Source of the DNA: Raja brachyura
Taxonomy: Eukaryota
NCBI GenBank assembly: GCA_963514005.1
Contig: OY740787.1
Coordinates: 73,718,001-73,782,000, forward strand
Length of the DNA: 64,000 nt
Direction of reading: 5' to 3'
In this document: piece after piece, positions 1 to 60,296 of the stretch
How positions within the stretch are numbered: position 1 is the stretch's first letter
Layout: each line of letters begins with the position of its first letter
Position numbers and translations under genes: made by a program
The notes under the pieces: generated by a model
What the model saw: the letters and a program-made list of their open reading frames with translations, nothing else
What the model was told of the DNA's origin: nothing
Databases searched by the model: none

Positions 1-400
1 ACATTAAGAATGGCATCCACCCCAGTTTTGCATTGTGAAGTAGCTAATGAAGTTGGTTTGAGAACTGCAGAGGACTCAGGAAATGCCTGACAGAAAAGGC
101 AAGTGGGTGTTTGAGGTTATGCTATTTATATGGAGCCTCTGTATGTTTTGGATGAATGTGTGTATGGCATGGTGAATGCGCATAAAGTTGCAAATCTTGG
201 ACGTGACTACTCCCAAATCCATTTAGGTTAAATGAATGATAAATAGGCAAAAAATATATACTGCTTCTATTTGAACAACACAATTTGAATATTGGAAGCA
301 CAAGGAACTGCAGATGTTGGAATCTTGAGCAAATCACAAACTACTGAAGTAACTCAGCAGGTCAGGCAGCATCTGTGGAGGGATTAGATTAGCACCATTT

Positions 401-1153
401 CAATAGACAATAGGTGCAGGAGTAGGCCATTTGGCCCTTCGAGCCAGCACCACCATTCAATGTGATCATGGCTGATCATCCCCAATCAGTACCCCATTCC
501 TGACTTCTCCCCATATCCCCTGACTCCGTTACTTTTAAGAGCCCTATCTAGCTCTCTCTTGAAAGCATCCAGAGAACCCGCCTCCACCGCCCTCCGAGGC
601 AGAGAATTCCACAGACTCTTCACTCTCTGTGAGAAAAAGTGTTTCCTCGTCTCCGTTCTAAATGGCTTACTCCTTATTCTTGAATTGTGGCCTCTGGTTC
701 TGGACTCCCCCAACATCGGGAACATTTTTCCTGCCTCTAGTGTGTCCAAGCCCTTAACAATCTTATATATCTCAATGAGATCCCCTCTCATCCTTCTAAA
801 CTCCAGAGTGTACAAGCCCAGCAGCTCCATTCTCTCAGCATATGATAGTCCCGCCATTCCGGGAATTAACCTTGTAAACCTACGCTGCACTCCCTCAATA
901 GCAAGAACGTCCTTCCTCAAATTAGGGGACCAAAACTACACACAATACTCCAGGTGTGGTCTCACTAGGGCTCTGTACAACTACAGGAGGACCTCTTTGC
1001 TCCTATATTTGATTCCTCTTGTTATAAAGGCCAACATGCCATTTGCTTACTTCACTGCCTGCTGTACCTGCATGCTTACTTTCATAGGCTGATGTACAAG
1101 GACCCCCAGATTCTGTTGTACTTCCCCTTTTCCAAACTTTACGCCATTTAGAT
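401..1153 (-). mobile_element. CR1-type LINE, 5'-truncated 3' portion
   Basis: ORF 486..920 reads LAIEGVQRRFTRLIPGM...RRMRGDLIE...WNSLP (CR1 ORF2 C-terminus); 3' UTR and short (ctattg) tail at about 401. Confidence 0.93.
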
Positions 1154-1479
1154 TTTAGGTTGGGACCCTTTAGTCTGAATGAGTATTTGAGTATTTCCGG
1201 ATTATGATTCCTGTTTATATCTAGACTTGGAGCTCATTAAGAAAGCTGAGGAAATAAAAGATCACATTATAGGCCCAACTACAGTAAAGCTCAGATAGTC
1301 CAGCAATTTCAGCACATTGGTGGTTCAGGAACAGTTAATGTTCCAGGACGATTAGATGGTATTCCTATTAATCCCACTGTTCACAAAAAAAAACTAAAGT
1401 TTTCCAATGAATCGACGAGTTAAAATGCAAGAAATGGTGCACAAATGAACTAGAGCCAAACTGTGATTTTTGCAGAGCT

Positions 1480-2392
1480 GGATAGCAGATTATCAGAGTT
1501 TTTTTATTGTATATGGAAATATTAAATTGCAAGTTAGAATGAATAAAAATACATTCTCTGTTGTGAATGTGAAGTAACCTGGTGTTTTATTATTCATTAT
1601 GGAAGATACACAAACTTGAAAAATGTAAAACATATAAAAGAGCTTAAGGGCTGCCATCTTATGAGATAAATATTCATACAGTCATAGCGTACAACAGGGT
1701 ACAATGATAGTGTGAAATTCAACAAGCTCTCCACTGAAGTTAGTTTTATAAAAAAAATTATACTATGCTTTATACAAACATCACATTTGTTCTGAGTAAT
1801 ATGCAGTGGATTGCTAGAATTGTTTTTGGAGATTTTGGCGTTCCTACACAATTTGTAGATATTACAGTGTATTTCAGAGTAATATTGTTTAAAATTAAAG
1901 GAAATAGAACTATTGTAATAAATCCAAATATATGCAACTAATAAACCATTTATTCCATTTACCATCAATGAAGAATGATAGGTACAAATCTTTTCCTGCC
2001 TTACCTGAAATAATTTACACAGAAGGAAGCTAGATCATCTCCAGATAGTGATTATATAAATTTTCCTCCGCATTTCAACAGCTTTCAGTTGTTTTTTAAA
2101 ACAGCTGTTTCTTGTACACAAATGATTTTAAAACCCAACCAACATTGTAGTGTAATTATAACAAATGTAGCTGCTATTTAAGTGAAACCAGTTTTGCCAC
2201 TATGCAGTAAATCAATCAAGCATATCATAACAACGTAATAAAAACCACTGGTCTACAATGTATGTCTATGAAAAATGATTCAGTTTCATAACTGCTTTTT
2301 AGACTAAAGTGAAACAATTCTACAGTTATTAGTTTGTAAACCTGTACTGTAGAACATGTTAAATTTCAATCTTGCCTCCACTAAATTCCAAC
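1480..2392 (-). other. Probable NCKAP1 3' UTR with candidate poly(A) signals
   Basis: AT-rich, repeat-free stretch after the stop; minus-strand AATAAA at 1949-1954, 1586-1591 and 1503-1508. The true 3' end is unknown. Confidence 0.6.
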
Positions 2393-2509
2393 TTAAGCCG
2401 AAGATGTAACACTTTGCTTGTAGACAGCGTGGTATGCATTTCGCAGGAGGACATAGGGAAAACAAGACTCCAGCAGATCCATTGTCAGGAAAGGCGACTC
2501 TTGAACAAT
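2393..2509 (-). CDS. NCKAP1: NCKAP1 terminal coding exon: [38 protein letters not shown]
   Basis: 117 nt including TAA stop (2393-2395), ttttctgcag acceptor; the C-terminus matches NCKAP1 as recalled and supports it over the paralogue NCKAP1L. Confidence 0.97.
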
Positions 2510-8790: not shown

Positions 8791-9562
8791 ACAGATCTCT
8801 CTTCCACTTTCTGGTACCAAATAGCAGTTAAGAATAATGTTTGAAATAGCAATTGGAAAAATTTTATTCTTCAAATTGCACGCACCTCCAAGGATTTCTT
8901 GGATGCTGGGGTAGTAATTTTTTTTTCTTCAAATATTTGAAAGCAATTTTACAAATTTGAATTCCCTGCACAGGGCTTTGCATGCCTGGAGCTCATATCA
9001 GAAACTGGGCCGAGGTCACCACAGTCACAACACTGCCCATTAACTTTAATGGGCGGAAAATCCTGCGGCATGCGGATTGTGCATGAATTCCTGATGTGCA
9101 ATCCCACAGCCCAAATCTTTGCTTCAGGACTGTAAATTCATTAAATTGACTTTTATTTCTGCATCATCGTTTGAAAAATAAGGGTCCGACAATACTACTT
9201 ATTTCCCTCCCAAAATCGAATGTTACTTTAAAAAAGTAAGTTTCAGAAATTTAATGTGTAACCTTCCCTCAATCTCTTCTCTGAATTTTATAATATTCAA
9301 CTTTTCATTGTCAAACTGAACAGTCAGAAAAGTCCATATTCCCAAATGACCTGTTTGCAACTTCAGCTAAAATAAAGTTACCCAATTTCAAAATTATACA
9401 TGTTCGTAACAGATGAATTTAAATATTTTAAATGTACACCACAATTCGGTTCACTATCAGTCCTTTCTTTCAGAATTTAAGTCTATCTGTTAAAAACATC
9501 AACTTTACTTCCCTCTCAATAATCACAAACTTAATTTTCCAGAAAAAGCTTCATTAGGTTAG

Positions 9563-11375
9563 TTAAAACAAATGTAGGTACCTTGCAGTCAGAAACTGGT
9601 GAATTGATCATGGGGAACAAGGACATGGCAGACCAATTGAATAACTACTTTGGTTCTGTCTTCACTAAGGAAGAAATACATAATCTGCCGGAAATAGCAG
9701 GGGACCGGGGGTCAAATGAGATGGAGGAACTGAGTGAAATCCAGGTTAGCCGGGAAGTGGTGTTAGGTAAATTGAATGGATTAAAGGCCGATAAATCCCC
9801 AGGCCCAGATAGGCTGCATCCCAGAGTACTTAAGGAAGTAGCCCCAGAAATAGTGGATGCATTAGTGATAATTTTTCAAAACTCTTTAGATTCTGGAGTA
9901 GTTCCTGAGGATTGGAGGGTAGCTAATGTAACTCCACTTTTTTAAAAAGGGAGGGAGAGAGAAAATGGGGAATTACAGACCAGTTAGTCTAACATCGGTA
10001 GTGGGGAAAATGCTAGAGTCAGTTATTAAAGATGGGATAGCAGCACATTTGGAAAGTGGTGAAATCATTGGACAAAGTCAGCATGGATTTATGAAAGGTA
10101 AATCATGTCTGACGAATCTTATAGAATTTTTCGAGGATGTAACTAGCAGAGTGCATAAGGGAAAATCTGTGGATGTGTTATATCTGGACTTTCAGAAGGC
10201 TTTCAACAAGGTCCCACATAAGAGATTAGTATACAAACTTAAAGCACACGGTATTGGGGGTTCAGTATTGATGTGGATACAGAACTGGCTGGCAGACAGG
10301 TATCAAATAGTAGGAGTAAACGGGTCCTTTTCAGAATGGCAGGCAGTGACTAGTGGGGTATCGCAAGGCTCCGTGCTGGGACACCAGCTATTTACAATAT
10401 ATATTAATGATCTGGATGAGGGAATTGAATGCAACATCTCCAAGTTTGCGGATAACACGAAGCTGGGGGGCAGTGTTATCTGTGAGGAGGATGCTAGGAG
10501 GCTGCAAGGTGACTTGGATAGGTTGGGTGAGTGGGCAAATGCATGGCAGATGCAGTATAATGTGGATAAATGTGAGGTTATCCACTTTGGTGGCAAAAAC
10601 AGGAAAGTAGACTATTATCTGAATGGTGGCCGATTAGGAAAAGGGGAGATGCAACGAGACCTGGGTGTCATGGTACACCAGTCTTGAAAGTAGGCATGCA
10701 GGTGCAGCAGGCAGTGAAGAAAGCGAACGGTATGTTGGCATTCATAGCAAAAGGATTTGAATACAAGAGCAGGGAGGTTCTACTGCAGTTGTACAGGGTC
10801 TTGATGAGGCCACACGTGGAGCATTGCACACAGTTTTGGTCTCCTAATCTGAGGAAATACATTCTTGCCATAGAGGGAGTACAGAGAAGGTTCACCAGAC
10901 TGATTCCTGGGATGGCATGACTTCCATATGAAGAAAGACTGGATAGGCTCGGCTTGTACTAGATGGAACTTAGAAGATTGAGGGGGGGATCTTATAGAGA
11001 CTTACAAAATTCTTAAGGGGTTGGACAGGCTAGATGCAGGAAGATTGTTCCCGATGTTGGGGAAGTCCAGAACAAGGGGTCACAGTTTAAGGATAAGGGG
11101 GAAGTCTTTTAGGTTAAGTTTGAGATGAGAAAATCATTTTCCACACAGAGAGTGGTGAATCTGTGGAATTCTTTGCCACAGAAGGTAGTTGAGGCCAGTT
11201 CATTGGCTATATTTAAGAGGGAGTTAGATGTGGCCCTTGTGGCTAAAGGATCAGGGGGTATGGAAAGAAGGCAGGTACAGGATACAGAGTTGGATGATCA
11301 GCCATGATCATATTGAATGGCGGTGCAGGCTCGAAGGGCCGAATGGCCTACTCCTGCACCTATTTTCTATGTTTC
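9563..11375 (+). mobile_element. CR1-type LINE, 5'-truncated, RT domain with frameshifts
   Basis: KSPGPD, NYRPVSLTSVVGK, QHGF, LDFQKAF, GVSQGSVLG, KFADN motifs spread over ORFs 9583..11307; 3' tail ctattttctatgtttc. Confidence 0.96.
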
Positions 11376-12849
11376 AAGTTCTATTTCTGAACTTGGGGTT
11401 CTCGCTGTAATATATATACTCCAAGAATTCCAATCCACACAGCTTAAAGCAGCTATCTAGCCTATTATGCCCATGTCCACACTACGTAAAGGTACATGAT
11501 CCACTTCTCTACTCTTTCCCTAGAATTATACAAATCCCTACCTTTCAAATATTTATCCAATTACCTTTTGGGAGCTATTAAACACGTTTCCTCCACTTCA
11601 AGGCATTGCCTTCCACATCACTTGCCATGCATTTAATTCCCTCTTTTATTTAGTTTTGTTTATTATTGTCACGTGGATCAAGATAGTGATAAGCTTGCTG
11701 TGTGCGCTATCCAATCAAATCAAACTGTAACGGCAATTTCAAACTTTTCCAATGTCCAATTTTCCATTGTCATTACTACACGGATAAGTGGGAGTGATCT
11801 TATATCAGATAAGAACGGAAAATTACTAAACTATATTTTCTTAATTGATTTCAAAATAAATGTTGCTTGTTATTGCATTAATTAGCAATATACAAATCGT
11901 TTAGTTTTTCTTATGGATAGCAGGTCGATCTAATAGTGCACATTAAAATCTACAAGTGATTTAGGATAAGATGTATTTATTTGGAGCATGCAACATCTGT
12001 TAAATCTCTTGGACCCTGTGTACTGCATCCGATTGTTTGGCAGACATCTATTCATTTCAAGTTAAATAAATGGCACTCTAAATTTGGAATTCAAAACATG
12101 GAGGTTAATACTCTTACCCACAAATGGCAGTAAAATAACGATTTAAAAGCAAAGTAATTTATTGCTCAGTGTATTAAATTTCACTCCGCTCAACTAGATG
12201 GGATTTAATGATTGCACGCCCAATTCTGAATTGAACAGTGCAATTTTTGAACAAGCAAAATACTATTTCATTTTCCAGAGAAAAAATGGTCTGTCATTTC
12301 AGCTCAAAGGTTTATTTATTCAAATAACTACCCATTTCTTTAAACTATCCCAAAACTAATAACAACTAATGCTGTGCTTTTGAAAATAGTCTCTTACAAA
12401 AGCAAATGCTGCAACTAATTTGCAAACAGAATACTACTGACAAAAATATTAAATATGACTATTTTTTATGGCTGAGTGATTATAATCTTGCACTGGTTAA
12501 AAGGCAAAACCTTATGCTCACTGCAAACGTTAATATGAAAAGGAGTTTTCTAAAACAATACTCAAGGAGAGTCTGGAACCATAAGCATTCTATCAGCCAG
12601 AATCCTCAGTTCATAGCCAAATAACCAAAGGAATGAGCATATAATCTAATTTATCATTTTGGTCCCATGCATTCACGAAAAGAGTGGGACAATATACTAC
12701 ACAGGACAAGCCAACATTTCCCTGTAGGGCATTCAGTGTAAAATTCTATTTTAATAAAGCAAAAGATTAAATCATAGCACTGCTTCACATAACACAATAC
12801 TTCCAAAAAACATTCTACTTTTGAACAGAAAACAAGGTAGTAATTCTAC

Positions 12850-13172
12850 TGGAGGCAGATGCTGGAATTTTGAGCAAAACAAAGTGCTGGAGTAACTGAA
12901 TGGGTTAGCCAGCATCTGTGGAGGGAATGTTTCGTGTCAGGACCATTCTTCAGACAGATTCAGCAAAACAAAGTGCTGGGGCAACTAAGTGGGTCAGGCA
13001 GCACCACAGCGGGTCAGGCAGTATCTATGGGGGGGGGGGGGGGGGGGGGGGGCGCAGCATCAGTCAAGCACAGTGTGAAGAACAGCATTAAACTGAAAGA
13101 GGATCCCAACCCAAAATGTTGCCTATCTATTAAAAATGCTGCCTGACTCGTTGAGATACTCCACCACTGTGC
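12850..13172. repeat. Composite of Penelope-derived arms with a 24-nt G run (13029-13052)
   Basis: Two tandem agcaaaacaaagtgctgg...aact arms and one inverted arm. Confidence 0.7.
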
Positions 13173-16064: not shown

Positions 16065-17719
16065 CACTGCCCTCCATAATGTTTTGGACAAAGACCCATC
16101 ATTTATTTATTTACCTCTCTAGTCCACAATTTGAGATTTGTAATAAAAAAAAAATCACGTGTGGTTAAAATGCATATTGTCAGATTTTAATAAAGGCCAT
16201 TTTTATACATTTTGGTTTCACCATGCAGAAATGACAGCTGTGTTTATACATAGTCCCCCCATTTCAGGGCACCATAATGTTTGGGACACAGCAATGTCAT
16301 GTAAATGAAAATAGTTATGTTTAGTATTTTGTTGCCTATCCTTTGCATGCAGTGACTGCTTGAAGTGTATGATTCATGGATATCACCAGTTGCTGGGTAT
16401 CTTCTCTGGTGATGCTCTGCCAGGCCTGTATTGCAGTCATCTTTAGCTTATGCTTGTTTTGGGGGCTAGTCCCCTTCAGTTTTCTCTTCAGCATATAAAC
16501 AGCATGCTCAATAGCGTTCAGATCGGGTGATTGACTTGGCCACTCAAGAATTGATCATTTTTTAGCTTTCAAAAAACCCCTTTGTTTCTTTAACAGTATG
16601 TTTGGGATCATTGCCTTGCTGTAGAATAAACCAGCGGCCAATGAGTTTTGAGGCATTTGTTTGAACTTGAGCAGATATGTTGTGTCTACACACTTCAAAA
16701 TTCAATATGCTACTACCATCAGCAGTTGATTCAACAATGAAGATAAGCGAGGCAGTACCTTCAGCAGCCATACATGCCCAGGCCATAACACCCCCACCAC
16801 CATATTTCACAGATGAGGTGGTACGCTTTGGATCTTGGGCAGTTCCTTCTCTCCTCCATACTTTGCTCTTGCCATCACTCTGATATAAGTTAATCTTCGT
16901 CTCATCTGTCCACAAGACCTTTTTCCAGAACTGTAGTTGCTCTTTTAAGTACTTCTTAGCAAACTGTAACCTGGTCATCCTACTTTTGCAGCTAACCAGT
17001 GGTTTGCATCTTGCAGTGCAGCCTCTGTATTTCGATTCATGAAGTCTTCTGCAGACAGTGGTCATTGACAAAGCCACACCCGACTCCTGAAGAGTGTTTC
17101 TGATCTGTCGGACAGGTGTTTGTGGATTTTTCTTTATTATAGAGATACTTCTTCTGTCATCAGTTGTGGAGGTCTTCCTTGGCCTGCCAATCCCTTTGCG
17201 ATTAGTAAGCTCACCAGTGCTCTCTTTCTTCTTAATAATGTCCCAAACCAGTGATTATGGTAAGCCTACGGTTTGGCTGATGTCTCTAACAGTTTTATTC
17301 TTGTTTCTAAGTCTCAAAATGACTTTATTTGACTTTCATTGTCACAACTTTGCTCCTCATGTTGATAAACAGCAATAAAAGTTTCCAACGGTGATGGAAA
17401 GACTGGAGGAAAGACTAGGTGCTGCAAGCTCTCTTATACCTGCATTAAGGAGGCATTCAAACACACCTGAGCAATTACAAACACCTGTGAAGTCATGTGT
17501 CCCAAACATTATGGTGCCCTGAAACGGGGGGGACTATGTATAAAAACCCAGCTGCAATTTCTACATGGTGAAACCAAAATGTATAAAAATACCGTTTAAT
17601 GAAATCTGACAATGTGCACTTTAACCACATGTGATTTTTTAATATTACAAATCTCAAATTGTGGAGTACAGAGGCAAATAAATGATGGGTCTTATTCCCA
17701 AACATTATGGAGGGCACTG
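16065..17719 (-). mobile_element. Full-length Tc1-family DNA transposon (IR-DR type), inactive
   Basis: About 225-bp TIRs (16065-16290 and 17496-17719), each with an internal direct repeat ccataatgttt(g/t)ggaca; TA at 16063-64, right flank reads TT. Confidence 0.95.
16321..17360 (-). pseudogene. Tc1 transposase pseudogene, DD34E type
   Basis: ATG at 17360; GRPRK, WTDETKIN, QQGNDPKH (catalytic D changed to G) and SPDLNAIE motifs; in-frame stops and frameshifts. Confidence 0.92.
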
Positions 17720-19670: not shown

Positions 19671-20409
19671 AGAGCCTGCCCCACTGACGCGACCTTTCAG
19701 CGACTGTCTTCGACCATCAAGCTCGAGGGTACTCGCCTGGAAAACCTCGAGGTGGATCGACCGTCAGCGATGAAACCGCGAGCTGGATCGACCGACCGCA
19801 CACACACATCGCAAAGGCGGGGGCCAGGGAAAGCGGGGGAGCGCTGTCTGAAGTTCACACCCGCGATGAACAGAAAGGTAAAAGACGGCTGCACAGTGTA
19901 TGGCAAGTCCTTTAGAGAGCGCGGAGGGGGAGGGGGAGCGAGAAGGGGAGAGATGGGAAGACAAAGTGGGGTGGGGGGGGGGGAAAGAGAAGGAGTGGAG
20001 ACACTTTTAAGAAGCCAGACAACGTTTAATAAAGTTTAGCGGGCATTTTACATTACCGGTTGGTTTTCCTTGGTCCTGAAAACTGCAATGAGCCAATTAA
20101 AATGCCCGGTCAGCGAAGGAGATTGCCTACGGCTGCCCTCGACTGCCTGTAACTACATAGCGATCCCACTCCACTGCACTACGGGTTCAAAAGAACCATG
20201 CCGACCAATTTTTACTCGCGGATTATTTTTCAACATGCTGAAAAATGTTCTTCGACCAAACTGAGGCCGCATGTATGCGGGAACTTCCCTCGAGCATGAA
20301 GGAGAGTTCCAGTGACCTCATAGGACCACGTGTCGACCATGCTGCGGGTTTGAGTCGAGGGCAAACACTTCTAAACTCGCAATTAGGTCGCCGCAGTGGG
20401 CCAGCCCTT
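19671..20409. mobile_element. Non-autonomous PIF/Harbinger-type element (MITE)
   Basis: Imperfect TIRs agagcctgccccactg / cagtgggccagccctt; TAA target-site duplication at 19668-70 and 20410-12; GC-rich interior. Confidence 0.8.
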
Positions 20410-20870
20410 TAAAGCAAAAAGAAAATCCAAACATTATGACCACTTCACTTCAAAGGAATAAACTGCTTTTTAAAAATCAGTTGGCTTTTTTTTTGTTACA
20501 TGCTTATAATTTATGGAAGCTTTGTTATTATAAAGGGATTTGATGAATTTCTGATTTTGGTGAATGATCTTAAACTTTTTGTAAAAAGAGGAAAATTATA
20601 TGTTGCAATGCATGAAGAGCACTGCAAACTTTAAACGCTACATCCTCATATACATTGCACGTGGCAAACTTCATTGCACGCTTTGCACGTAGGCTGGAAC
20701 TGGAAACTGAATGAATGTCGGTCACTAATCAACAAGTCAGCCTGTGCACCATTGCCAATATACAGTACTGGCCAACTTGTACCAGTATCAGGAAATAATC
20801 AGTTCTCATCCATGCAATCTACAATCCAGCTATTGAATCAGGCACAATTCAAAGTATTCTTAGATTCTTA

Positions 20871-21537
20871 AGGGCCTGTCCCACTTACGTGTCCTTGGCA
20901 TGAAAATTACGCGACGTCGTCGTCTCGTTGAGGCGCACGGGCATCGTATGGCCACGCAGGGCCGGTCCCACTGAGAAGCGCAGAGGGGTATGTAGTGCTG
21001 GGCTCCAAAATTTTTATAACGAACGAAATCTTTGCGGGCCAACCGCCTGTCGTGTAACTGACGGCCATAGTGGGACAGGCCCAAGACCCTGGCGCAATGC
21101 AACATCTCATCTCCAACAGCAGTAGAAGCAGGCAAACGATCACCGAACTCGGCCTGGGGCTCACGGCTGTTGCGGTCCGGATCCGCCCCCACTTCTACTC
21201 CCAGAGCGGGGCCAAGAAAATTGAAGAGAGGCACAAAATGCAGGAGTAATTCAGCGGGACCGGCAGCTTCTCTGGAGAGAAGCAATGGGTGACGTTTCGG
21301 GTCAAGACCCTTCTTTCAGACTGAAGAGTCTCGACACGAAACATCATCCATTGCTTCTCTCCAGAGATGCTGCCGGTCCCGCTGAGTTACTGCTGCATTT
21401 TGTGTCCATCTTCAAATAACGTCACGCGCTCCAGACGGCTGGGCGGTCGAATGAAGTCGTGCGGGACCGTCATGGCTCAACCCGACCACGAGGTCACGTA
21501 ATTAGCGTGCCAAGGACACGTAAGTGGGACAGGGGCT
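20871..21537. mobile_element. Non-autonomous PIF/Harbinger-type element containing a palindromic Penelope-derived insert
   Basis: About 60-bp imperfect TIRs starting agggcctgtcccacttacgtgtccttggca; TTA TSD at 20868-70 and 21538-40. Confidence 0.88.
21221..21415. repeat. Palindromic Penelope-derived short element with hammerhead-like cores on both strands
   Basis: Two inverted arms of about 95 bp; minus strand reads gtctgaaagaagggtcttgacccgaaacgtcacc. Confidence 0.8.
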
Positions 21538-22319
21538 TTAGACTTTAACGGTTGCCCTAGGTTAAATATGGGCAACCTTTCTTATAATATATAGTCTTAA
21601 AGGGAGCTGAGAAGAGATGAAACGATCCAAAATGTATGTTTTGATGAAAACTTATTGGACCTCAAGACCACAAACACAAAAGGAAGGTGAAATGGAGCAC
21701 TCCAGCTGTTCTGCCATTTGATAAGATCACTTTTTTTTGGCATCAGGGTCACTATCCTCAACTTGCCCCACATTTCTTGAATCTCCTAATATTCCAAAAT
21801 ATATTATTTAATAAATGAAATGAAAATATTAAAAAAAAAATCACTGCCTCAGATTAAAAATATACTTGTCTGTGATTAACAGGATATAAAATTATTCTCA
21901 ACTTAAAATTAATTTTATAAATTGCGAACGGCAACAGCAGATAAATATGAATAAATTATTTCCTTGGCTCTGTTCTTCTTAAGCTCCAATATCACAAATA
22001 TCTACCAAGTTAACAATTTTTCAAATTCTCATCTTCCACTTCCTGCATTAAAAGAGCCTCAACCACTTTAATACATCTAGAATTCCTTTCCTAAAGCCTT
22101 CTACCTTTCTCTCTTAGACGTCATAATAATGCTACAAACAATGTTGTTTGCTTGCATCTCTTTTATAATTACATTTCCATTGTTGTTTCAGCAGGTTTAT
22201 TTTGGTAGCTGAAGTTTGCATGCCAAACTAAAGCTCATAAAATGGATACTTATGAAATACGAATAGACATGTCTGTCAGGCAATCCTTCCAACTCCACAT
22301 ATATCCATGATGCTGGTTC

Positions 22320-29445: not shown

Positions 29446-29469
29446 GTGCCAACATGGACCCATTAAAAT

Positions 29470-29933: not shown

Positions 29934-30032
29934 TGGTCTGAAGAAGGGTCTTGACCCAAAACATTACCCATTCCTTCTCTCCAGAGATGCTGCCTGTCCG
30001 GCTGAGTTACCCCAGCTTTTTGTGTCTATCTC
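29934..30032 (+). repeat. Single-arm Penelope-derived element, decayed hammerhead core
   Basis: ggtctgaagaagggtcttgacccaaaacattacc, then gatgctgcctgtccggctgagttaccccagc. Confidence 0.75.
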
Positions 30033-35567: not shown

Positions 35568-35711
35568 TTACTAAACCAAAATACTGGCTTTATTTAGTTA
35601 AACACATAATACTCCTACTGCCCTCATGCAACTACACAGGATATCTCCATAGGAAGCACCTCTCTCACCATCACATTGGACAAAGATGTATCTGCAGCAC
35701 CATTACTACTG

Positions 35712-37680: not shown

Positions 37681-39261
37681 AACAACCAACTCACAACCAT
37701 CTCTACTCACAATTGTGCCACTCGACCTTATATCCACTATCAATCTCACACTGCCAACCAACAAACAATAGTATGGCTATAAATATATGCTGATTTTAGA
37801 TCCAAGCTGCTGTTCAACCAGCATATTGATATTCTTTCAACCTTAGTTGACTGCTAATACAATTACCTGCTTGATGTCTCCTTCTGAGTACTTTAAGGTC
37901 CTTTTTCCCCTCTTCTCACGCCAGTACCTATATTTGCACTTTCCACTGTCTCTCCATCCATAAACTAATTCCAATTTCTGCAGCACAGTTAACATGACAT
38001 ACAGATGGGTGATTTTGCCTTTCATGTGGCCTCAGCCAAAAAACAGTAGCAATACCCTTATCACAACAGGCAAACAAATATTTCATTTTCACGATTGTCA
38101 TTGCTGTACTTTTGTGCCTTGGAAACTGCACATCATCCAAAGCCACCTTACACTTAGCTACATCCAGAATATTGGACCTTTACAATTCTGCCCACACATC
38201 TAACCCAGACACATGGTTTCTCTATGGAGAAATCTTTACAACAAAGAACTGCAGATGCTGTTCTATAGAAAGGACTCAGTGCTGGAGTAACATCAGGTCA
38301 GGCAGCATCCGTGGAGAACATGGGTAGGTGACATTTTGGGTCGGGTCCCTTCAGACAGCTATAAAGTTTACTTCAACATATTTATCTGTAATCAGAATGG
38401 TGCTCAGTGCTAAGACCAACATACACCAACAGTCTGTTCTGCAGCCACTTCAAATGATACTGGTTAATTCACTCCAGCCTGGGAAATTGTTTTGTTGGCC
38501 TGCAGATCAGACAATGACTCACTTAGTGTTAAGATATACAACTGCTGACATGGAAGAAATCTTAAAGTATAAAAGATTTTACTGCATAGTAATACAAATT
38601 AAAAAGTGATTAATTTCACCAAGCCGTATGTTTTGGGAAAGAATTCAAATAATCTTTTTATGCCTTCTCCCTGTGATCTTTGCTTTGAAAGAGCTATAGT
38701 ATCTAGACCTATAATGTGCCATTTGTAATACCACCATTTACAATTTTTTGCATACATTTACAAACCCTCCCCTCACCCAAGTTCTTTAGGCAAATATTTT
38801 TAAAACTACAACTTCAGGTTACTGGCCAGAGGAAATATTTCATCCCTGCATACTCTATCAAAATCTCAGACAATGCTGAATATCTCCTTATGGTTTTTCA
38901 TTATCTACTCTGGTCTAAAACTTCCCATTACACTGTAGATTTGAAGGACCATTTCCCTGGTTACCTTAAATTGGTATCAATTTAAATTCTGTTTCACGAT
39001 GTGGACTTTTCTGAGACCAGAATTTACTGCCCATCCCCAATTACTCTTGAAAAGATGTTTGGTGAACCACATTCTTGAACCACAATCCTTTTAGTGTCTT
39101 CTCTGCTTAAGCATAATGATCATAAAAATTAGTAGATTGTTATGCCATCTCAAAGGACATTTAAGAGGTAACACTCAAGTTGGGTGTCAGTTATGTATTC
39201 CAGACCAAGCAGGATGACAGATTTCCTTCTGAAGATTAGTGAACAAGATGGATTTTTAGAA

Positions 39262-39476
39262 ACAAAAAACTGCAGATGCTGGTTAATGCACAAAAATACA
39301 CAAAGTGCTGGAGTGGAGCATGTCAGGCAGCATCCCTGGAGAATAGGTGGATAGGTGACGCTTCAGGTCTGAAGAAAGATCTTGATCTAAAACATTACCT
39401 ATCCATGTTCTCCAGGGGCGCTGCCTGACCTGCTGAGTTACTCCAGCACTTTGTGCCTTTTTGTGCATTAACCAGT
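39262..39476. repeat. Palindromic Penelope-derived short element
   Basis: Inverted arms ctggttaatgcacaaaaa...caaagtgctggagt / actccagcactttgtg...tttttgtgcattaaccag. Confidence 0.8.
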
Positions 39477-40547
39477 CTTCTACCCCAGTCTGGTTGTTTT
39501 CATGGTCCCCTCAAAATCCAAGCTTATTACCTGTATTTGAATCCTACAGATGCCATGGTGAGAATTGAATTTAGATCTCCCAGATTGCTTGTCAACTAGT
39601 CTGGTAATTTAAGCACTGCATCATCACCATACTAAAGTAAATGGATAGATAATGGCAACTATATATCCTCATTGCAAAAAGAAACACCTATCACTAAATT
39701 AAAAGAATACATGGAGGTGAGGTGAAGCAATGACTGTCCCTACCAATGTCAAAATCCAAGTAGCTGGTCCCTCCTGTCTTTATTTACCCTAAATTAATGT
39801 GGATTCGATGTAGTCAAATATTAATACTTTCTTCGTGCATACTTTCCTTAGTATACTTTACATTGAAATGCAAAACATTTTACTCTATAAAATAGAAGTA
39901 TTCATACCCCGTCTTTAACCTCTCAAATTTAGGATTGGACAAGAAGGGATTTGATTCAAACGAATCAATTGGTTACGAAGCACTTGAGATATGTGCTTTG
40001 TAAATACAAGCTTTTAACTTTTGTTTTGATGAGGTTCATATCAACACATTTCCAAAGTCTAAAGAATTCTAATGATGACTTATTTTCAGGATTATTGTCC
40101 ATTCCTTCTAGGAAATAAATGTAAAACTAGCTTATGTCCCCCTTTTAAAATTTCTAAACCTGTCACCGCAAACATTGCAATACTGCGTACTCCAGCTTTT
40201 CTGATAACACATCTAATGAGATACTGGTTATGGTTATAACTCAATGCATAACTAGTTCATTTCTCTCATTAGTCTTCTTGTAACGACTTCAGACAAAACT
40301 ATTGATTTCCAGTTTTCATAGATAAACAAAGATCATGAAACACAATAAATAATTTGTTCCATCAATTTTATTCAGTGGCATTGGTCTAAGGATTTCTTTT
40401 GGGTCTGGTTTTCATTTGTTTTTGGGACGGTGCCAATTTTATAGAAACTGTTCATTAGCTTTGTTCTGGATTTTGTTATGTATACATTAGAAACATCTCT
40501 TTTTTTCCTCTATGCTAACCAAAAACAAAGCAATTGGGTCACTCGCT

Positions 40548-41346
40548 GTATAAAGTCGTTTTAATGGACCCCTTTATATCAGATTTTGGTTAAGACAGAC
40601 GGACCTGCTGATGAGATCCCCCGACTCGCACCGTCTTCCTGGCCGCTTACAGCCTCTGCCCCCGGCTCGCAACGTGAGAACCCTTCTTAACCCTCCGCAT
40701 TGTCCAGTTGACACGGCTCTTACTGCGGCTCACGTTGTAGCACCAGGGGTCACTGTGCGGCTGCCTCCCTTCTCACCGTATGCTGCATCTACCGGTCAGC
40801 CTGTCACTTGCCCACTTCCCGCTCCATCGCCACCTCTTTCTCCCGTAACCCTGTCTACTCGGCCTCCTCCCCCCCCCCCCCCAAAGTCACCCACATACTC
40901 CACCTTGGAAGCGACAGCAGATAAGAGGGAAGGGAGTCCAGAGGTGACCGAGTGCATCTTGTCAGTGGCAGCAGCTTGAAGAAAGTGGTGCCTGCCATGG
41001 CCTACAACTTGAGCCGCACCAATAGCCCTCTTACCTGATTCTGCTCACTGGCACAGATCAGTGGCATTGGCGCCTAGTTTAAGGTGAAACAACATAAAGT
41101 GCTGGAGTAATTCAGCAGACTGAATCAATCTGAAGAAAGGTCCTGACGTCAGCTATTCATGTTCTCCACTAATGCTGCCCGACCCACTGAATTACTCCAG
41201 CACTTTGTGTCCTCTTGTGTATTAACTAACATCTGCAGTTCTTTGTTTCAACTGCATACAATCACCAATAACAGATACCACCCCCCACTCTCTTCCCCCT
41301 TCCCTCCTCTCCCCCCCCTGGTTTGTTATAATGTGAGTTTACTATA
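40548..41346. mobile_element. Possible decayed pogo/Tigger-like non-autonomous element
   Basis: GC-rich interior bounded by weak inverted ends (gtcgttttaatggacc / ggtttgttataatgtgagtttacta); a similar end lies at about 24825-24865. Confidence 0.35.
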
Positions 41347-42314
41347 GGCCATTCAACCAGCTCGAAAATCGGACCTCTGTCTCCCCATCTATGCACTAGC
41401 AGCGTCGGCCTGCTCAACACACTTGGTTCCTTGCGCTCACTGTAATCGTACCAAGTATGATCAACTAATTGTTACAAAATACCGTAACAGTTCATGTGTT
41501 GAAAGCATAACAGTGTACTATTCCAACACATTTCATGTTTACATCACTATCTGTGCCTATTTTAAACCTTTCTATCCTGCAGCTACCTGTTATTGTATCA
41601 AAATTACACAGGATAAAAATAAATCCACAGTTGTTTCTCATTAAGATCATAATCTCATGAAACTATTCTGACAAAATAAGCTTTTAACGTCCTGGCGCGG
41701 AGGTTACCAAATGGCAGAATATGACTAGCTAGACTATTCAATTAAATATTCGAAAGGCTGGAATGATATTCTCATAGCTCAATGCTGATTCATTGAGGAA
41801 GACCAAATGTTTCTCGTAATCTGATGTTGACAGTACATCTTACTTGGTATGAACTGTCTGTTGTGTTACTTAAACATGCAACAATGTTTAAATATGGTCC
41901 TACAATTCATTTGTTTGTGTAAGTAAAAATTAGTTAAGATATTATGAGGATCTCATTGCCACATGGACGGAGAAAGTCACCTTGACCAGTTATCATGGAC
42001 TTGTTGACTGAGGTAAAGTTCGGAAAACAGACATTAGCCTGTCCTTTACATAAAGAATGATAGATTGAAGTGAGAAATGATAAGTAAATCAGAATTAACT
42101 TTTTAGCATAGCTAAAAGCTCAAACAGCTTTAGAAACATCTCAAATTCCATGTAGAAACAGTAACCCATACCAAATGATCCAGATCCAGCCATTGGGATA
42201 TTGAACCATTTAAACTAAGTGTCATATTAAGTGTCTGAGGCACTGTCCAGAATTAGATACGGTCACATTCTTGGTATAAGATGATATTAACATTTAGATA
42301 AACAATCCTCCAAA

Positions 42315-42411
42315 AGGTGGACACAAAACGCTGGAGTAACTCAGCAGGACAGGCAGCATCTCTGGTGAGATAGAATGGGTGACATTTCGGCTCACGACCC
42401 TTCTTCAGACC
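42315..42411 (-). repeat. Single-arm Penelope-derived element with an intact minimal hammerhead core
   Basis: Minus strand 42411-42378 reads GGU-CUGAAGA-A-GGGUC-GU-GAGCC-GAAA-UG-UC-ACC. Confidence 0.75.
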
Positions 42412-46574: not shown

Positions 46575-46759
46575 ATGAGGTTAGGACAGTGAATGTTGTA
46601 TACATGGATTTTTGAAATGCATTTGACAAAGTCCCCCATAGTAAGATGATCCAGAAGATTAAAAAGCATGGGATTCGTGGTGACTTGATCTTCAGAACTG
46701 AATTGATCATAGAACATAGATGGTTGTGGTGCAAGGGCAATATTCCGGCCTGAGGTTCA
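46575..46759 (+). mobile_element. Older CR1 RT fragment
   Basis: Reads VNVVYMDF*NAFDKVPH. Confidence 0.7.
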
Positions 46760-48680
46760 GAAACATAGAAAAATAGGTGCAGGAGTAGGCCATTCGGCCC
46801 TTCGAGCCTGCACCGTCATTCAATGTGATCATGGCTGATCATCCAACTCAGTATCCCGTACCTGCCTTCTCTCCATACCCCCTGATCCCTTTAGCCACAA
46901 GTGCCACTCTAACGCCCTCTTAAATATAGCCAATGAACTGGCCTCAACTACCTTCTGTGGCAGAGAATTCCAGAGACTCACCACTCTCTGTGTAAAGAAT
47001 GCTTTCCTCATCTCGGTCCTAAAGGAATTCCCCCTCATCCTTAGACTGTGACCCCTTGTTCTGGACTCCCCCAACATCGGGAACAATCTTCCAGCATCTA
47101 GCTTGTCCAACCCATTAAGAATTTTGTAAGTTTCTATAAGATCCCCCCTCAATCTTCTAAATTCCAGCGAGTACAAGCCAAGTCTATCCAGTCTTTCCTC
47201 ATATGAAAGTCCTGAAATCCCAGGAATCAGTCTGGTGAATCTTCTCTGTACCCCCTCTATGGCAAGAATGTCTTTCCTCAGATTTGGAGACCAAAACTGT
47301 ACGCAATACTCCAGGTGTGGCCTCACCAAAACCCTGTACAACTGCAGTAGAACCTCCCTGCTCCTATATTCAAATCCTTTCGCTATAGAACATAGAACAT
47401 AGAAATTAGGTGCAGGAGTAGGCCATTCGGCCCTTCGAGCCTGCACCGCCATTCAATATGATCATGGCTGATCATCCAACTCAGTATCCCGTACCTGCCT
47501 TCTCTCCATACACTCTGATCCCCTTAGTCACAAGGACCACATCTAACTCCCTCTTAAATATAGCCAATGAACTGGCCTCAACTACTCTCTGTGGCAGAGA
47601 GTTCCAGAGACCCACCACTCTCTGTGTGAAAAAATTCCTTCTCATCTCAGTCCTAAAGGATTTCCCCCTTATCCTTAAGCTGTGACCCCTTGTCCTGGAC
47701 CTCCCCAACATCGGGAACAATCTTCCTGCATCTAGCCTGTCCAACCCCTTAAGCTAACATACCATTTGCTTTCTTCACTGCCTGCTGCACCTGCATGCCT
47801 ACTTTCAATGACTGGTATACCATGACACCCAGGTCTCGTTGCATCTCCCCTTTTCCTAATCCGCCACCATTCAGATAATAGTCTACCCTCATGTTTTTGC
47901 CACCAAAGTGGATAACCTCACATTTATCCACATTATACTGCATCTGCCATGCATCTGCCCATTCACTCAGCCTATCCAAATCACCCTGCAGCCTCCAAGC
48001 ATCCTCCTCACACCTAACTATACCCCCCAGCTTGGTGTCATCTGCAAATTTAGAGATGTTGCATTCAATTCCCTCGTCCAAATCATTACTATATATTGTA
48101 AATAGCTGGGGTCCCAGCACTGAGCCTTGCGGTACCCCACTAGTCACTGCCTGCCAGTCTGAAAAGGACCCGTTTACTCCTACCCTTTGCTTCCTGTCTG
48201 CTAGTCAGTTCTCTATCCACATCAATACTGAACCCCCAATACCGTGTGCTTTAAGTTTGTATGCTAATCTCTTATGCGGGACCTTGTCGAAAGCCTTCTG
48301 AAAGTCTAGATATAACACATCCACTGGTTCTCCCTTATCCACTCTACTAGTTACATCCTCGAAAAATTCTATCAGATTTGTCAGACATGATTTACCTTTT
48401 GTAAATCCATGCTGACTTTGTCCAATGATTTCACCGCTTTCCAAATGTGCTGCTATCCCATCTTTAATAACTGACTCTAGCAGTTTCCCCACTACCGATG
48501 TTAGACTAACTGGTCTGTAATTCCCCGCTTTCTCTCTCCCTCCTTTTTTAAAAAGTGCGATTACATTAGCTACCCTCCAATCCTCAGGAACTACTCCAGA
48601 ATCTAAGGAATTTTGAAAAATTATCACTAATGCATCCACTATTTCTGTGGCTATCTCCTCGAGTACTCTGGGATGCAGAC
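46760..48680 (-). mobile_element. CR1 LINE (46760-47386 plus 47753-48680) with a second CR1 3' fragment (47387-47753) nested inside
   Basis: RT motifs GVPQGSVLGP and KFADD; two 3' UTR/tails, at 46760 and 47387; host frame KANGMLA...IAKGFEY is split by the insert. Confidence 0.93.
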
Positions 48681-49169
48681 TACTCAAGGAGGTAGCCACA
48701 GAAATAGGATTTGGCTTTATATCAAAGTTGGTATTATCCAAACCATTGCACTTGTTCAACTGATTAATTTAATGCCCAATTTTTATAATTTAGGTTATAT
48801 CTATTGGTGTTTAATTATTCGGATTACCCCTACGTGCGTTTTTGAATGAGGGCGTAACATTTATTATTTTACAATCCTCAGGCAATGCTTCTGAATCTAT
48901 AGACGTTTGGAAGATTATGGCCAAGGCTTCTCCATTTCTCCTTCCACCACACTTCACTCAGAAAACTAGGATGCATCACATCCGAATAGGAAATGTATCT
49001 AAGTACATCCTGCCTTTCTATTCTCAATTAATTTTAGATATCCAGGATCCAAATTTCATGTTCCATTGGTGTAAATCTAACAAATTCTTCCTTGGTTTGA
49101 TACTGCTGTGAAATAGTTCTTTCATACTTCAGCTAGGGAAAGACTTGAACTTTATTTCGCCTTCCATCA

Positions 49170-52375: not shown

Positions 52376-53244
52376 ATAATATTCTCAATGACCATTTAAA
52401 TTATTTCTAAGAAGATAAATACAAAAACTACTGAAGTCATGCAGTTCTTTCATTTCCTTTATATCCTCACAGTTAAAACCTTACTGACAACCCAAATAAT
52501 CGGAAGCAAAGTCCATCAAACTATATGCAGAATTGATTTTTAGACTGATTGCCCAAAATGTACAATTACAAATAAATGTATTGTGAAATATGATTCAAGT
52601 AGATCCTTTTTCAATCTTGAGGATAAATATTCCAGTCTATAAAGATCCAGGAAAAAGTGAAAATAGAAAGTACAAGTTTTACCTGTGTGTCAGTTTATTT
52701 ATTTTTTTAAAGTTACTTAAGTTGACTGTGGTATCTTTGTGCCAAAGTGTTAAATTTCAGTTTAAAAGTTCTACTTTGTCTTTTACATACAGTCCTAAAT
52801 ATTACAATTGGTTGGAAACTGAGGCAGAGATATTTGGTTGAACTAGGACTTTGTACAAGGGTTAAGGTAGAGATGAATCATTTCTGTAAAACTAGGCTAA
52901 TTTTATTCCCTCTTACAGAACTAGGTCTTCAATTTAATAGTCCCATGAGTACTAGACACCTCACACAAATGTTTACGTAGAGGTCTAGACATTACCAGTC
53001 CTGTCAGTAGATTACTTAACCCGAGAGAACAATGCATTAGACCCCATACTTGCTGCCTTGAATTTTCAGCACAGCTTCTCAGATAATCAGCAATCTGGTC
53101 AATATTGCTCATTTTAATTTAGGATCAGTTGAAACACCCTTACACCACTCACTGATATCAGACAATTCACCACCGGAAATAAATCTACAACTTTCAGAGC
53201 CGTACAACTACTTTAATTCATAAATCAGCTGAGCTATTAAAGCA

Positions 53245-53432
53245 CGGAGACACAAGAAATTGTACATATTGAAATATTGGGCAAAACACAAAGTACTGTA
53301 GGAACTCAGTGGGCTAGGCAGCATTTGGGGAGGGTACGGACAGGTGACTTTTCAGGTCCAGACCTTCTTCAGGGAGAATGTCCATTCCCTCCCAGATGCT
53401 GCATGACTCACTGAGTTCCTCCAGCACTTGAC
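53245..53432. repeat. Palindromic Penelope-derived element; further decayed copies at about 296-400, 4255-4325, 23935-24070, 24480-24665, 26700-26800, 28700-28795, 31985-32035, 38240-38357, 41090-41250 and 59178-59350
   Basis: Shared words gaactcag...ggcagcat...gagg and gatgctgc...ctgagtt...ctccagca. Confidence 0.7.
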
Positions 53433-55087: not shown

Positions 55088-55467
55088 CTATAAAACAAAA
55101 AGTGTAATCTTTAAAACAGGTTAAAATAAAAATGTCACAACCGGCAATATCGACATATTAATGGAGGTTGAATCCCACCAAATACATATGGGTTTTTAAA
55201 AATGCTAGCGAATTCTGATTTAAGAGATTAGAATTTGTTTTGCTTTGCACAGCATAGAGTTTGGTTCTCTGCTGAACAAATAAAAACCTACTGTACATTA
55301 AGTTGCAAAATTTACATTTTTCACCACTTTCTTCACAAAACATGTTTTTCAAATTATTTTAAAATGCTATTTTAAGTAACTGTTTTTAGCATTCTCTGTT
55401 CTTCGTGCATCATTTAAAAATCAAACAGGTTAAACTTAACTGTGCAATATGCACATTTTGTTCTTTA

Positions 55468-55632
55468 TAGAAACATAGAAAATATGTGCTGGAGTAGGCC
55501 ATTCAGCCCTTCGAGCCAGCACCGCCATTCAATATGGTCATGGCTGATCATCCAAAATCAGTACCTCGTTCCAGCTTCCCCCCCCATATCCCTTGATTCC
55601 CTTAGCCCGAAGAACTAAATCTAACTCTTGAA
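55468..55632 (-). mobile_element. CR1 3' UTR and tail fragment (another at about 57455-57540)
   Basis: Near-identical to the 3' UTRs at 46760-46890 and 401-540. Confidence 0.85.
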
Positions 55633-57114: not shown

Positions 57115-57234
57115 CTGATCACTAAGGGTGCACTGCTCTGTGCATATATCTGTTATGAGGTTGCGGGCTTGCTTAGCCATTTCATCAAGGAACATGTTGC
57201 ACAGCGAGAGACTACGATCCCCAATGTGATGCCT
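57115..57234 (-). CDS. NCKAP1: NCKAP1 coding exon (first in window): [40 protein letters not shown]
   Basis: 120 nt, ttgtag acceptor and gtaag donor, phase 0/0; peptide matches vertebrate NCKAP1 from about residue 588 as recalled. Confidence 0.96.
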
Positions 57235-58189
57235 CTACAAGATCCAGAATTAATAAAAACTATGAGTGTCCAATGCATTCTGAATATATACCGAATGATG
57301 AAAATGTGGGCTTTATCAACATGTGAACTAATGATACCATTTCAAATATACTGTTCAAATATACAAATGAACAGTTAAAAATTATTACAATGACTCATTC
57401 GTCTGCACACCTAAAAACGCCAAAGAGACCAGCTGCTTAGCACATAACATCAGAGTCATAGAATCATAGAAAATAGGTGCAGGAGTAGGCCATTTGGCCC
57501 TTCGAGCCTGCACCGCCATTCAATATGATCATGGCTGATCAAATTAGAAAAGGATCTCGAACTTATAGCTGCAACATTTATTTTTGACATCAATTTAACC
57601 TAAAACTGACATCACTCGTTCAACTCCCAAAGATGCCTCTCAAAAAGTGCCTCACAAAGCCCAGTGACAAAATTAAGTTGAATGGTGGTAAATTCAACAT
57701 GGTTTATCGTGGAAAGTTGAAGAAAATTTTCAAATTATCATTTTTTATCCATTGAAAACAACATAACATAGGTGGGGATGATCCATTAAGGACAAACAAC
57801 ACACCCACAGCTAGATCTTCTCCAAGGAATGCATTCGTTTGCGGTTGTCAAACTAACCTAAAACATAAATAAACATGTACATTAGGGTGCAGCTCAAATG
57901 AGAGGTCAGTTCAAGCCAGAAACCCACTGACTTTTGATTTCTTGCCACTGCCTATGCTTCCTTCCAGCCGGATAGTAGCAAATGCTGAATGGACCTATTA
58001 CTGGCACATCGTGAATTTTGAACAAATTATAAATTATAACTTCTGAAACCTTTGTGCGAGGCATATAGTGATTTAAGGGTCTAGCTGTTTCTAGCTATAC
58101 TGCAAAGATCTTAATCTCGCAACTAGATTAAATGATTTGAAAATTTCATGGCTACATTGAGCTAGATGGTGCAAATATAGCTGGCCCAC

Positions 58190-58580
58190 AAGAAACAAAG
58201 TGCTGTTGTGGAGGGAAATGGACAGATTGACTGGAAATGGACATTTTGGACTGGGCAATTTCTTCAGACAGTGTAGCTGTGAGACTACAATGGGTGAAAT
58301 AAAATAAATATATAGGACTCTATATATTTGGTGGGAGGTGGAAGTAAGGAGGAGGGGAAAGGAGCAATATGACTAGGATGGTGGAAGAAATGTGTGCACA
58401 CCAAGGGTAGGGCTGAGAAAGAGGGGGTGTTATTTCAAATTGGAGAATTTTATATCCATACCATTGGGTTGTAATCTACCTAACCAGAATATGAGGTACT
58501 GTTCTCCCAGTTTGCATGTGGCTTCACTGTGACAATGAAAGTGGCCAAGGAGAGAAAGGTCAGTATGGGAATGGAAAGGT
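58190..58580 (-). mobile_element. Penelope-like retroelement 3' remnant (GIY-YIG C-terminus plus 3' UTR)
   Basis: 58579..58430 reads PFHSHTDLSLLGHFHCHSEATCKLGEQYLIFWLGRLQPNGMDIKFSNLK*; followed by a pyrimidine-rich UTR and a decayed ctgaagaa motif at about 58240-58270. Confidence 0.8.
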
Positions 58581-60171
58581 GACTTTTATTTCTGCTGAAA
58601 ATTCAACATCTGCAATCTCTTGTATCTGTAGGCTGCAAGAAATGCAGGCAAATCACTCACTGTATGAAGTAGCTAAATAATCAAAGTGAACATTAGCTTC
58701 TGAAAGGTTAATCTTTTTAAAGAAATTGGTTGGTTTTCAATTGGGGCAAACAGCTGTGTCCACATCCTAAATATGTTTTGCTTTGCGCAAGTACATACTT
58801 TCTAGATACTAAGCTTTACCCTATACTGGGCATGGAAATTCCTTAACTGAAAACCTTTTGCCAGTCTATTAACTAGATCAATGAATCATATTTGGTTCAT
58901 AACAGATGGTGCAAGTGTCCTTTGGAAAATAACATTGCTTGAATAAGTGAAGCATTTGTTGGTTTTCTACCTGCTGTGGGAATGGTCAAACAAAAGAATG
59001 ATCTCATGATCGATATAACAACAAGACAGCATCTATATTTAATCAGGAGCAAACGATTTCATGCCCATTAACAGGTGTGGGAATTTACAACAGCAGTGTT
59101 CACCATCAACATCAAATTATCTTCCACTCTAGTCTGGGAACAATCTTACAAAAAAATCAATATGCTTCAGTTTCAAAAGAGAAATGCTGGAACTACTCAG
59201 CAGATCAGACCGCATCCATGGGTAAAGAAACTAAGTTAACATTTTGGGTCAAAGATGCTTTGCCAGAATTGGGAACTCTCAGCTCTGTTTCTTTCCCATC
59301 AATGTGGCCTGAGCTACTGAATATTCTCAGCATTTTCAGTCTTTACTTTCAATTTCCGTGCCTCAGCTAAGCTTGAGTAAGGATCCTTCTTTGAATACAA
59401 ACTTTCTGTAGTAGAGAAAGTCTAACAGAAATGCTTTCTTATTACTACAAAAACTGATGGGAGTGGGCACAACAGTCTGTAGGCAAAAAATTGTTTGAAC
59501 ACACGATATTCAAGAATTATAGTTTGCAATTAAAAAATACCAGCTTCCAAACAAGTTTCAGCTGCTTAATTATGCTTATTGCATAGATATATTAAATTAT
59601 GTGATGCATTTTGATCACAAAAAACATATTTGCAAATGCATTGTGTGTTGAGCATAACAGCACATACTAGAGATTGTCCTCAAATCTATCCAAACTTCTA
59701 CCTCAACATTTACTTCAATTTTAACTCCTTTAGCCTCCCTAAAGATTATAAGCAATTAAGCTCTTTTCAGCTAATTAACGGGCAAACACTGCATCGCAGG
59801 ACAGCTGCCTATAAAACTAGGCCGATGTGTTCAACTCCAGCCTCTAATTCACAGGTCATCATCTTCATCTGGCAATGCAGTGTCTTGAGCAACCTTGAGA
59901 TCCGCCTCATATTGTCTTGCTAAGTCAGGGTCCATCTAAACCTCTGGGGGTGCCTCAAAAGCTCACCTCAAAAGCTGTCTGGTTCCATCCTTATTCCTTC
60001 TTGCATCCCCCAATACAGCCCTATAATCTATTTCTGAAACTTAAATATGTCTGATACCGTTTGTAGTTGGATTGCCAATGTTGGCGTCCCCAATTCTTCA
60101 ATGTATGGGCTGAGAACCATCTAGAATTCTGAGAACGGTCATCAACGTCTATACTGCACTACACATTAATA

Positions 60172-60296
60172 TCACAAAAGCTGGAGTAACTCAGCGGGCC
60201 AAAAGAAGGGCCTCGACCCGAAACGTCACCCATTCCTTCTCTCCAGAGATGCTGCCTGTCCCACTGAGTTACTCCAGCTTTCTGTGTCTATCTTCA
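60172..60296. repeat. Partially palindromic Penelope-derived element
   Basis: aagctggagtaactcag / ctgagttactccagctt arms enclose gaagggcctcgacccgaaacgtcacc. Confidence 0.78.

Follow-up and report, generated by a model that had tools for sequence, protein, structure and literature searches.

The stretch of Raja brachyura DNA analysed here (64,000 nucleotides of contig OY740787.1, positions 73,718,001 to 73,782,000 of the forward strand; hereafter the window) covers introns of NCKAP1, which lies on the minus strand, and several short minus-strand frames yield Pfam Nckap1 matches. Its GC content is ~0.38, and it also contains fragments of long interspersed nuclear elements (LINEs) with reverse transcriptase (RT) matches, as well as a Tc1-type transposase. 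Scattered through these introns is a family of short repeats with a hammerhead ribozyme motif, which the original prediction took for a non-autonomous, ribozyme-bearing family mobilised by a Penelope-like element (PLE). The reading that we favour (probability of about 0.8) is that the 14 loci of this family are old, neutrally decaying copies of a ~95-135-nt module, likely stump-sized insertions of an endonuclease-containing (EN+) PLE, and not working ribozymes. We read these stumps as dead and as made at insertion, rather than as copies of a master non-autonomous ribozyme element.

Twelve arms served to build a profile, and its search of the window returned 25 rows, of which 21 passed the threshold of E <= 1e-3 (nine of them not among the seeds); in the reversed window, used as a control, the best E was 0.3. 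These 21 arms form 14 loci between positions 296 and 60309 (A to N, in order), that is, one per 4.6 kb, so that the family, its count (~15 elements) and its density (one per 4-5 kb) hold as first described. The 33-nt consensus proposed for the core also matches above chance (0.00 matches in 100 shuffles), but at three mismatches or fewer it does so at only two places, 29936-29968 (plus strand, 3 mismatches) and 42378-42410 (minus strand, 2 mismatches), and the four cores cited for it are all damaged.

The unit shared by these loci is an arm of ~95 nt, composed of the core and a 3' block, with an optional tail of ~37 nt. Four sequencing runs from other organisms each contain more than 1,100 contigs in which the 3' block leads into the tail (agreement ~0.7), and in all four the tail stops sharply at 24069-24071, beyond which lies unrelated AT-rich flank (agreement 0.34). 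The number of contigs aligning to one subfamily copy is ~85,000-117,000 per large (DNA-scale) run and 11,111 in the small run, and several subfamilies have the same layout. At 8 of the 14 loci, the arm has a head-to-head inverted partner, a feature missing from the initial element list, and each junction is its own: the two strands meet one base before C3 (C), within helix II (D and I), within the core (N) or in the 3' part of the arm (E, J and L). Contigs aligned from all four runs similarly show opposite-strand joints at several positions. Partial tandems are also seen, locus B being a composite that includes one (12959-13030). Head-to-tail joints with a ~96-nt period occur in the four runs (41, 36, 32 and 4 contigs), but not as arrays in the window, where no tandem array of whole units was found. 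A sharp-ended tail of 30-40 bp, inverted partners, partial tandems and variable target duplications all fit EN+ PLE insertions, and junctions that differ at every locus fit stumps built at each insertion. A separate non-autonomous family is not established.

Target duplications were evaluated for 15 stretches against 1,500 random pairs. Duplications of 10-13 bp with p <= 0.025 were obtained at four stretches, where ~0.4 would be expected: 12 bp with one mismatch at locus D (p 0.005), 11 bp with one mismatch at locus L (p 0.008), a candidate of 13 bp with two mismatches at locus A (p 0.025) and a candidate of 10 bp at locus E (p 0.025). Locus K has a 9-bp duplication with p 0.067, and locus C has none of its own. 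A looser search (slack 30) placed no locus above the null. We consider these duplications good but not clean support for the insertion model. Loci D and E are old, because their flanks occur together with the element (with parts of it at D) in the runs of the four other organisms, locus E being spanned by single contigs in two of them; no empty orthologous site for either locus was seen in these four runs.

Among the loci with inverted partners, locus C (21221-21415) is a near-perfect fold-back of two 93-nt arms that are 88% complementary, centred one base before C3, with cores at 21319 (minus strand, extra A) and 21321 (plus strand, shortened helix II). At locus I (39259-39483), another fold-back, the plus arm carries a core at 39369 with G12>A and two A-U pairs in helix II, and the minus arm, truncated in helix II, bears the tail. 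Locus B comprises a minus arm with tail (12848-13030), preceded by the partial tandem arms, and a decayed plus arm (13093-13171), the two standing head to head across a G run and a spacer; in its core at 12953, helix II is broken and the 3' strand of helix I is deleted. Locus D (23936-24068) is a minus arm without CUGAAGA, joined to an inverted tail, and locus E (24479-24665) consists of an inverted tail and partial arm, a spacer, and a plus arm with a degenerate core at ~24570. A short inverted arm followed by a plus arm with tail makes up locus J (41078-41260), the core of which (~41130) has lost GAAA and the 3' strand of helix II by deletion. Locus L (53241-53430) combines a minus arm with tail and a short inverted partner, and its core at 53372 has all catalytic bases and no helix I. 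Finally, at locus N (60173-60300) a short inverted arm is joined to a plus arm lacking U4-G5.

The other loci are single arms or fragments. Locus F (29936-30032, plus strand) is a solo arm of ~97 nt with no tail and with G12>A in its core at 29938. Locus H (38237-38360, minus strand) is a solo arm with tail, the core of which combines a 3-nt deletion with G12>A. Locus K (42314-42410, minus strand) is a solo arm in the sense orientation of NCKAP1; its core alone combines a full set of catalytic bases with helix II (one mismatch) and a 3-bp helix I, the GG of which likely derives from the target. The core is absent from locus A (296-391, minus strand), a 5'-truncated arm with 3' block and tail that adjoins the end of a LINE fragment, and from locus G (31969-32035, minus strand), a short fragment of the 3' block; the arm at locus M (59182-59266, minus strand) is strongly decayed.

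Comparison of sequences supports a fit between the majority core (CUGAAGA, an extra A after A9, a G-C-closed helix II, GAAA, a palindromic CG, and UC) and the metazoan PLE minimal-hammerhead consensus reported by Cervera and De la Pena 2014 (PMC4209133). The CUGANGA and GAAA boxes with UH are found in most of the 12 core-reaching arms, the extra base lies between A9 and 10.1, the 10.1-11.1 pair is G-C in 7 of 11 rows, and positions 15.2-16.2 are palindromic without loop 3, CG being the majority and the others mostly CA or TG (CpG decay products). Individual copies are another matter. None of the four cores described as best preserved is intact: the one at 21288-21321 (minus strand) has an extra A within CUGANGA, the one at 29935-29968 (plus strand) has G12>A and changes at 16.2/17, the one at 42378-42411 (minus strand) has complete core bases and a G.G mismatch in helix II, and the one at 60205-60230 (plus strand) lacks U4-G5 because an inverted arm is joined at that point. 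A relaxed hammerhead descriptor is passed by 2 of the 12 core-reaching arms (0-2 in 40 shuffles, mean 0.28), and the passing arm at 42408 is the only one of the two with a helix I. Within the module, helix I measures 2 bp; it reaches 3 bp only at 42408, probably with target bases, and 48% of helix I cells are paired. The majority core fits the PLE minimal-hammerhead type, as originally proposed, but working ribozymes in these copies are unsupported.

Two of the refuting outcomes named at the outset were obtained in the window sample: a core no better conserved than the 3' block, and no significant covariation in helix II. Over 11 arms (the one at 38354 being excluded for its deletion), identity is 113/127 (89%) in the core versus 359/418 (86%) in the 3' block (p = 0.46). 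Pairing holds in 86% of helix II cells, and 143 of 500 shuffles reach the covariation score of this helix, in an imperfect alignment of 12 old copies. The double A-U change at 39369 was dropped as a case of covariation, since each pair has one C>T side, one of them at a CpG, and the shuffle test was negative. Variant frequencies from aligned contigs were not used for conservation, as unitigs break at variants and the counts were truncated. Both core CpGs decay freely, C11.1-G12 being retained in 5 of 11 arms and 15.2-16.2 in 2 of 11. Conservation and covariation together speak against selection on the copies, but not against a ribozyme in the parent element, because the window sample is old and small.

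RNAalifold applied to 10 arms predicts a single invariant helix, of 4 bp and in the 3' block, and predicted folds hide the core by pairing with the partner arm in fold-backs and with downstream sequence in the solo arm K. The suggested check against Rfam covariance models gave no hammerhead row in the window at E <= 10; a MIR533 row at 53295-53425 (39.5 bits, cut-off 80) corresponds to the hairpin of locus L and was rejected. Beyond the window, a hammerhead pattern scan yielded no match in viral contigs, none in prokaryote genomes, and one in metagenomes. This match (positions 1270-1312 of contig L001, an apparently eukaryotic contig with a longest open reading frame (ORF) of 106 aa) forms a complete hammerhead of type I: helix I has 4 bp, helix III is small and palindromic, the core is as in the window family and helix II is nearly so, but the family's 3' block is wholly absent.

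The one useful peculiarity of the family is that the majority of copies start at one place, just ahead of the motif. In the 12 core-reaching arms, which were selected for reaching the core (the remaining arms end further 3'), the shared sequence upstream of C3 does not exceed ~8 nt. The GUC cut site marks neither the start nor the end of any copy; since copies begin just upstream of the core instead, cleavage did not define them. Likewise, 41 unrelated database ORFs read through the arm, with upstream residues that are mostly unrelated and, in about a dozen, an inverted arm cut at varied points, according to a tally made by eye on ORFs selected for their open frame. In the young subfamily arm at 29938-30032 and its relatives, the frame is open throughout, giving rise to spurious predicted database proteins (41 matches). 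An edge in contig depth at 29936 partly reflects the start of the reference copy and was not taken to prove that the 5' end is shared. In two solo arms (29935-29937 and 42409-42411), the probable target duplication ends with GG before UCUGA, giving a 3-bp helix I; with two cases, this GG could be microhomology with the upstream bases of the template.

Under the likely insertion model, drawn by analogy with the Anolis element PAc (PMC11167929), the PLE endonuclease would nick AT-rich DNA, and reverse transcription would begin internally in the RNA, at either of the two sites that border the tail. Copying would then span ~95 or ~130 nt, through the uncut hammerhead, and stop a few bases upstream of C3, probably since the template RNA begins there. 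This RNA start is our best guess for where copying ends, a stall or a splice junction being the alternatives. Joining the cDNA straight to the target would yield a solo arm, a strand switch before joining would yield an inverted partner with a variable junction, and a jump to another template would yield a partial tandem, the outcome being a 10-13-bp target duplication. What the data show directly is the anatomy of the copies, their sharp 3' end, clustered 5' ends, variable junctions, duplications and decay, whereas the parent element, its enzymology and the cause of the 5' end are inferred.

In a tentative proposal to which we give somewhat less than even chances, the stumps would be run-off products: a cDNA primed at the first tail site would extend only to the 5' end of the RNA of the PLE itself, a boundary lying a few bases before the hammerhead. 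This boundary, directly before the core, resembles a splice acceptor, pyrimidine-rich and ending in CAG, in a weak plurality of upstream sequences. According to published reports, the Penelope of Drosophila virilis has an intron 46 bp after its start site (PMC2377424), the 3' end of which maps to a 2-bp helix I (PMC4209133), a parallel to the 2-bp helix I and CAG of the window family. A splice gate, in which helix I would be completed only in spliced RNA, nevertheless seems improbable to us, and the whole scenario of run-off cDNAs ending at a splice-acceptor-like RNA boundary with a splice-gated ribozyme is hardly less doubtful.

Several points weigh against an origin as PLE stumps. No PLE RT or GIY-YIG domain was found in the six frames of the first 14.7 kb (from position 1), nor in 106 of the 146 ORFs of at least 62 aa beyond it (those skipped lay in the known LINE and Tc1 blocks and, for some, over the repeats). 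Neither was one found in 30 of the 41 read-through ORFs: looking there for a PLE ORF fused to the open frame of the arm gave only short ORFs, and Pfam domains are absent from all 30 that were scanned. The PLE parent is thus suggested by architecture. Furthermore, a minority of genome copies seem to run upstream into a shared C-rich stretch with a weak consensus: the plurality sequence upstream of the arm in aligned contigs is C-rich, with TCA before G, at an agreement of 0.33-0.40, close to that of random flanks. A sharp 5' end would also suit a dedicated short transcript or a polymerase stall. Finally, duplications fall short of significance at 11 of the 15 stretches, and the looser first pass (slack 30) preceded the choice of some boundaries.

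The alternative that survives best, in line with the original prediction, is a dedicated non-autonomous family resembling short interspersed nuclear elements or retrozymes: master copies or tandem arrays would give rise to a short RNA of the family's own, which a PLE would mobilise in trans. Fixed size, very high copy number and the head-to-tail joints of ~96-nt period would suit it, and pseudo-long terminal repeat (pLTR) sequences are reported to be trans-mobilised (PMC3846280), retrozymes having been proposed as PLE derivatives (bioRxiv 10.64898/2026.07.22.740005). We nevertheless find it unlikely, as the window has no tandem array of whole units, the inverted junctions are all different, the cleavage site, at which a monomer released by the ribozyme would begin and end, bounds none of the copies, and the same layout is common to several subfamilies. 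Far less probable is that the fold-backs are non-autonomous DNA transposons akin to miniature inverted-repeat transposable elements (MITEs) with a chance hammerhead-like word: long inverted arms, modest target duplications and the position of locus C within a MITE-like element agree with this, but 6 of the 14 loci are solo arms, arm lengths are unequal, only one side carries the tail, duplications differ in length (10-13 bp), and the core agrees with the PLE consensus at all positions. Equally remote is an active, host-retained intronic ribozyme acting on NCKAP1 pre-mRNA (best candidate 42378-42410), for although both descriptor-passing cores are on the NCKAP1 sense strand, there are only two of them, one lacks helix I and lies in a fold-back, helices I and II of the other have a pairing probability of 0.0 in a 150-nt fold, cores occur on both strands (5 minus, 7 plus), and minimal hammerheads are reported not to cleave as monomers (PMC4209133).

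Other mobile elements surround the stumps. The MITE-like element that encloses the locus C fold-back (20860-21548) has 73-bp terminal inverted repeats (82%) and TAA/TTA flanks, features reminiscent of PIF/Harbinger, and a 47-bp piece of it is found again at 35462-35508. A Tc1-type element (16149-17640) is bounded by terminal inverted repeats of 100 bp and contains a transposase frame of 230 aa (PF01498). One LINE family is represented by copies 75-95% alike at 395-1158 (abutting locus A), 9535-11384 (RT match at 9932-10687), 46758-48768, 55467-55616 and 57458-57541, and a second LINE type by two fragments with weak RT matches (35700-37500 and 61286-62700). Finally, the region 19680-20400 is GC-rich, unlike its surroundings, and possibly another mobile element, with no Pfam match.

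The window family is a real, decayed, further case of the known PLE minimal-hammerhead repeats. As ribozymes its copies matter little, since minimal hammerheads in PLE repeats are known, at thousands per fish or frog genome, and are decayed here. Their value is as footprints, as the insertion cycle of PLEs is still unresolved (PMC8557442, PMC11167929). As the copies number in the tens of thousands and have two alternative 3' ends, 5' ends in a single cluster and inversions that vary, it could be possible to locate the start of the template RNA, which the shared start just before the motif may mark in the parent, and to see whether hammerhead cleavage plays a part and how inverted repeats form. 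If the run-off proposal is true, the genome is a very large natural record of the starts, stops and strand switches of PLE reverse transcription. For the host, fold-backs would give introns long double-stranded hairpins: those at 21221-21415 and 39259-39478 are predicted to reach -151 and -132 kcal/mol in NCKAP1 pre-mRNA and are possible RNA-editing substrates.

Literature searches, outside Repbase and Dfam, yielded no publication that describes the family from skates or rays, although the retrozyme preprint, which samples one chondrichthyan, may list it. The closest relatives of its motif are the minimal hammerheads described in metazoan PLE pLTRs (PMC4209133), which share CUGAAGA with the extra base, G10.1-C11.1, GAAA, the palindromic C-G at 15.2/16.2, and UC. 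That report gives thousands of solo motifs and mentions opposite-strand pairs 100-700 bp apart; its consensus helix I has at least 3 bp (2 bp in D. virilis), versus 2 bp within the window module, and the terms searched in its supplement gave no match for the family's helix II sequence or for cartilaginous fishes. Cleavage of minimal hammerheads as dimers is attributed to Lunse et al. 2017, as cited in PMC6765202. Non-LTR retrozymes (bioRxiv 10.64898/2026.07.22.740005) are similarly described as non-coding, with a type I hammerhead, pLTR-related, and present in the chondrichthyan sampled, but they form tandem units each with a complete motif, whereas copies in the window, which has no such array, are solo or inverted and decayed.

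The architecture of the copies fits, at minimal size, that of EN+ PLE insertions, which are reported to be typically 5'-truncated, to form partial tandems, to lie beside an inverted copy and to carry a tail of 30-40 bp (PMC8557442, PMC3846280). In the Penelope/Poseidon and Neptune clades, 5' truncation, partial tandems, an inverted 5'-truncated neighbour and a tail at one end are described as they are seen here. Target duplications are shared as well, at ~8-10 bp in those reports and 10-13 bp in the window, but window units comprise only the last 95-135 nt, with no ORF seen. Another close parallel is PAc, a Poseidon element of Anolis (Frangieh et al. 2024, PMC11167929). Its reverse transcription is reported to start internally, at tail-bordering sites of the RNA that lie 111-118 nt into an ORF beginning at stem II, its targets are AT-rich, and its hammerhead requires protein for cleavage, while insertion does not require cleavage. 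The window arm differs in having no start codon at stem II and no Pfam domain in the frame that runs through it. PAc has in common with the model proposed for the window family a hammerhead ~110-120 nt upstream of internal RT start sites, AT-rich targets and an uncut RNA template.

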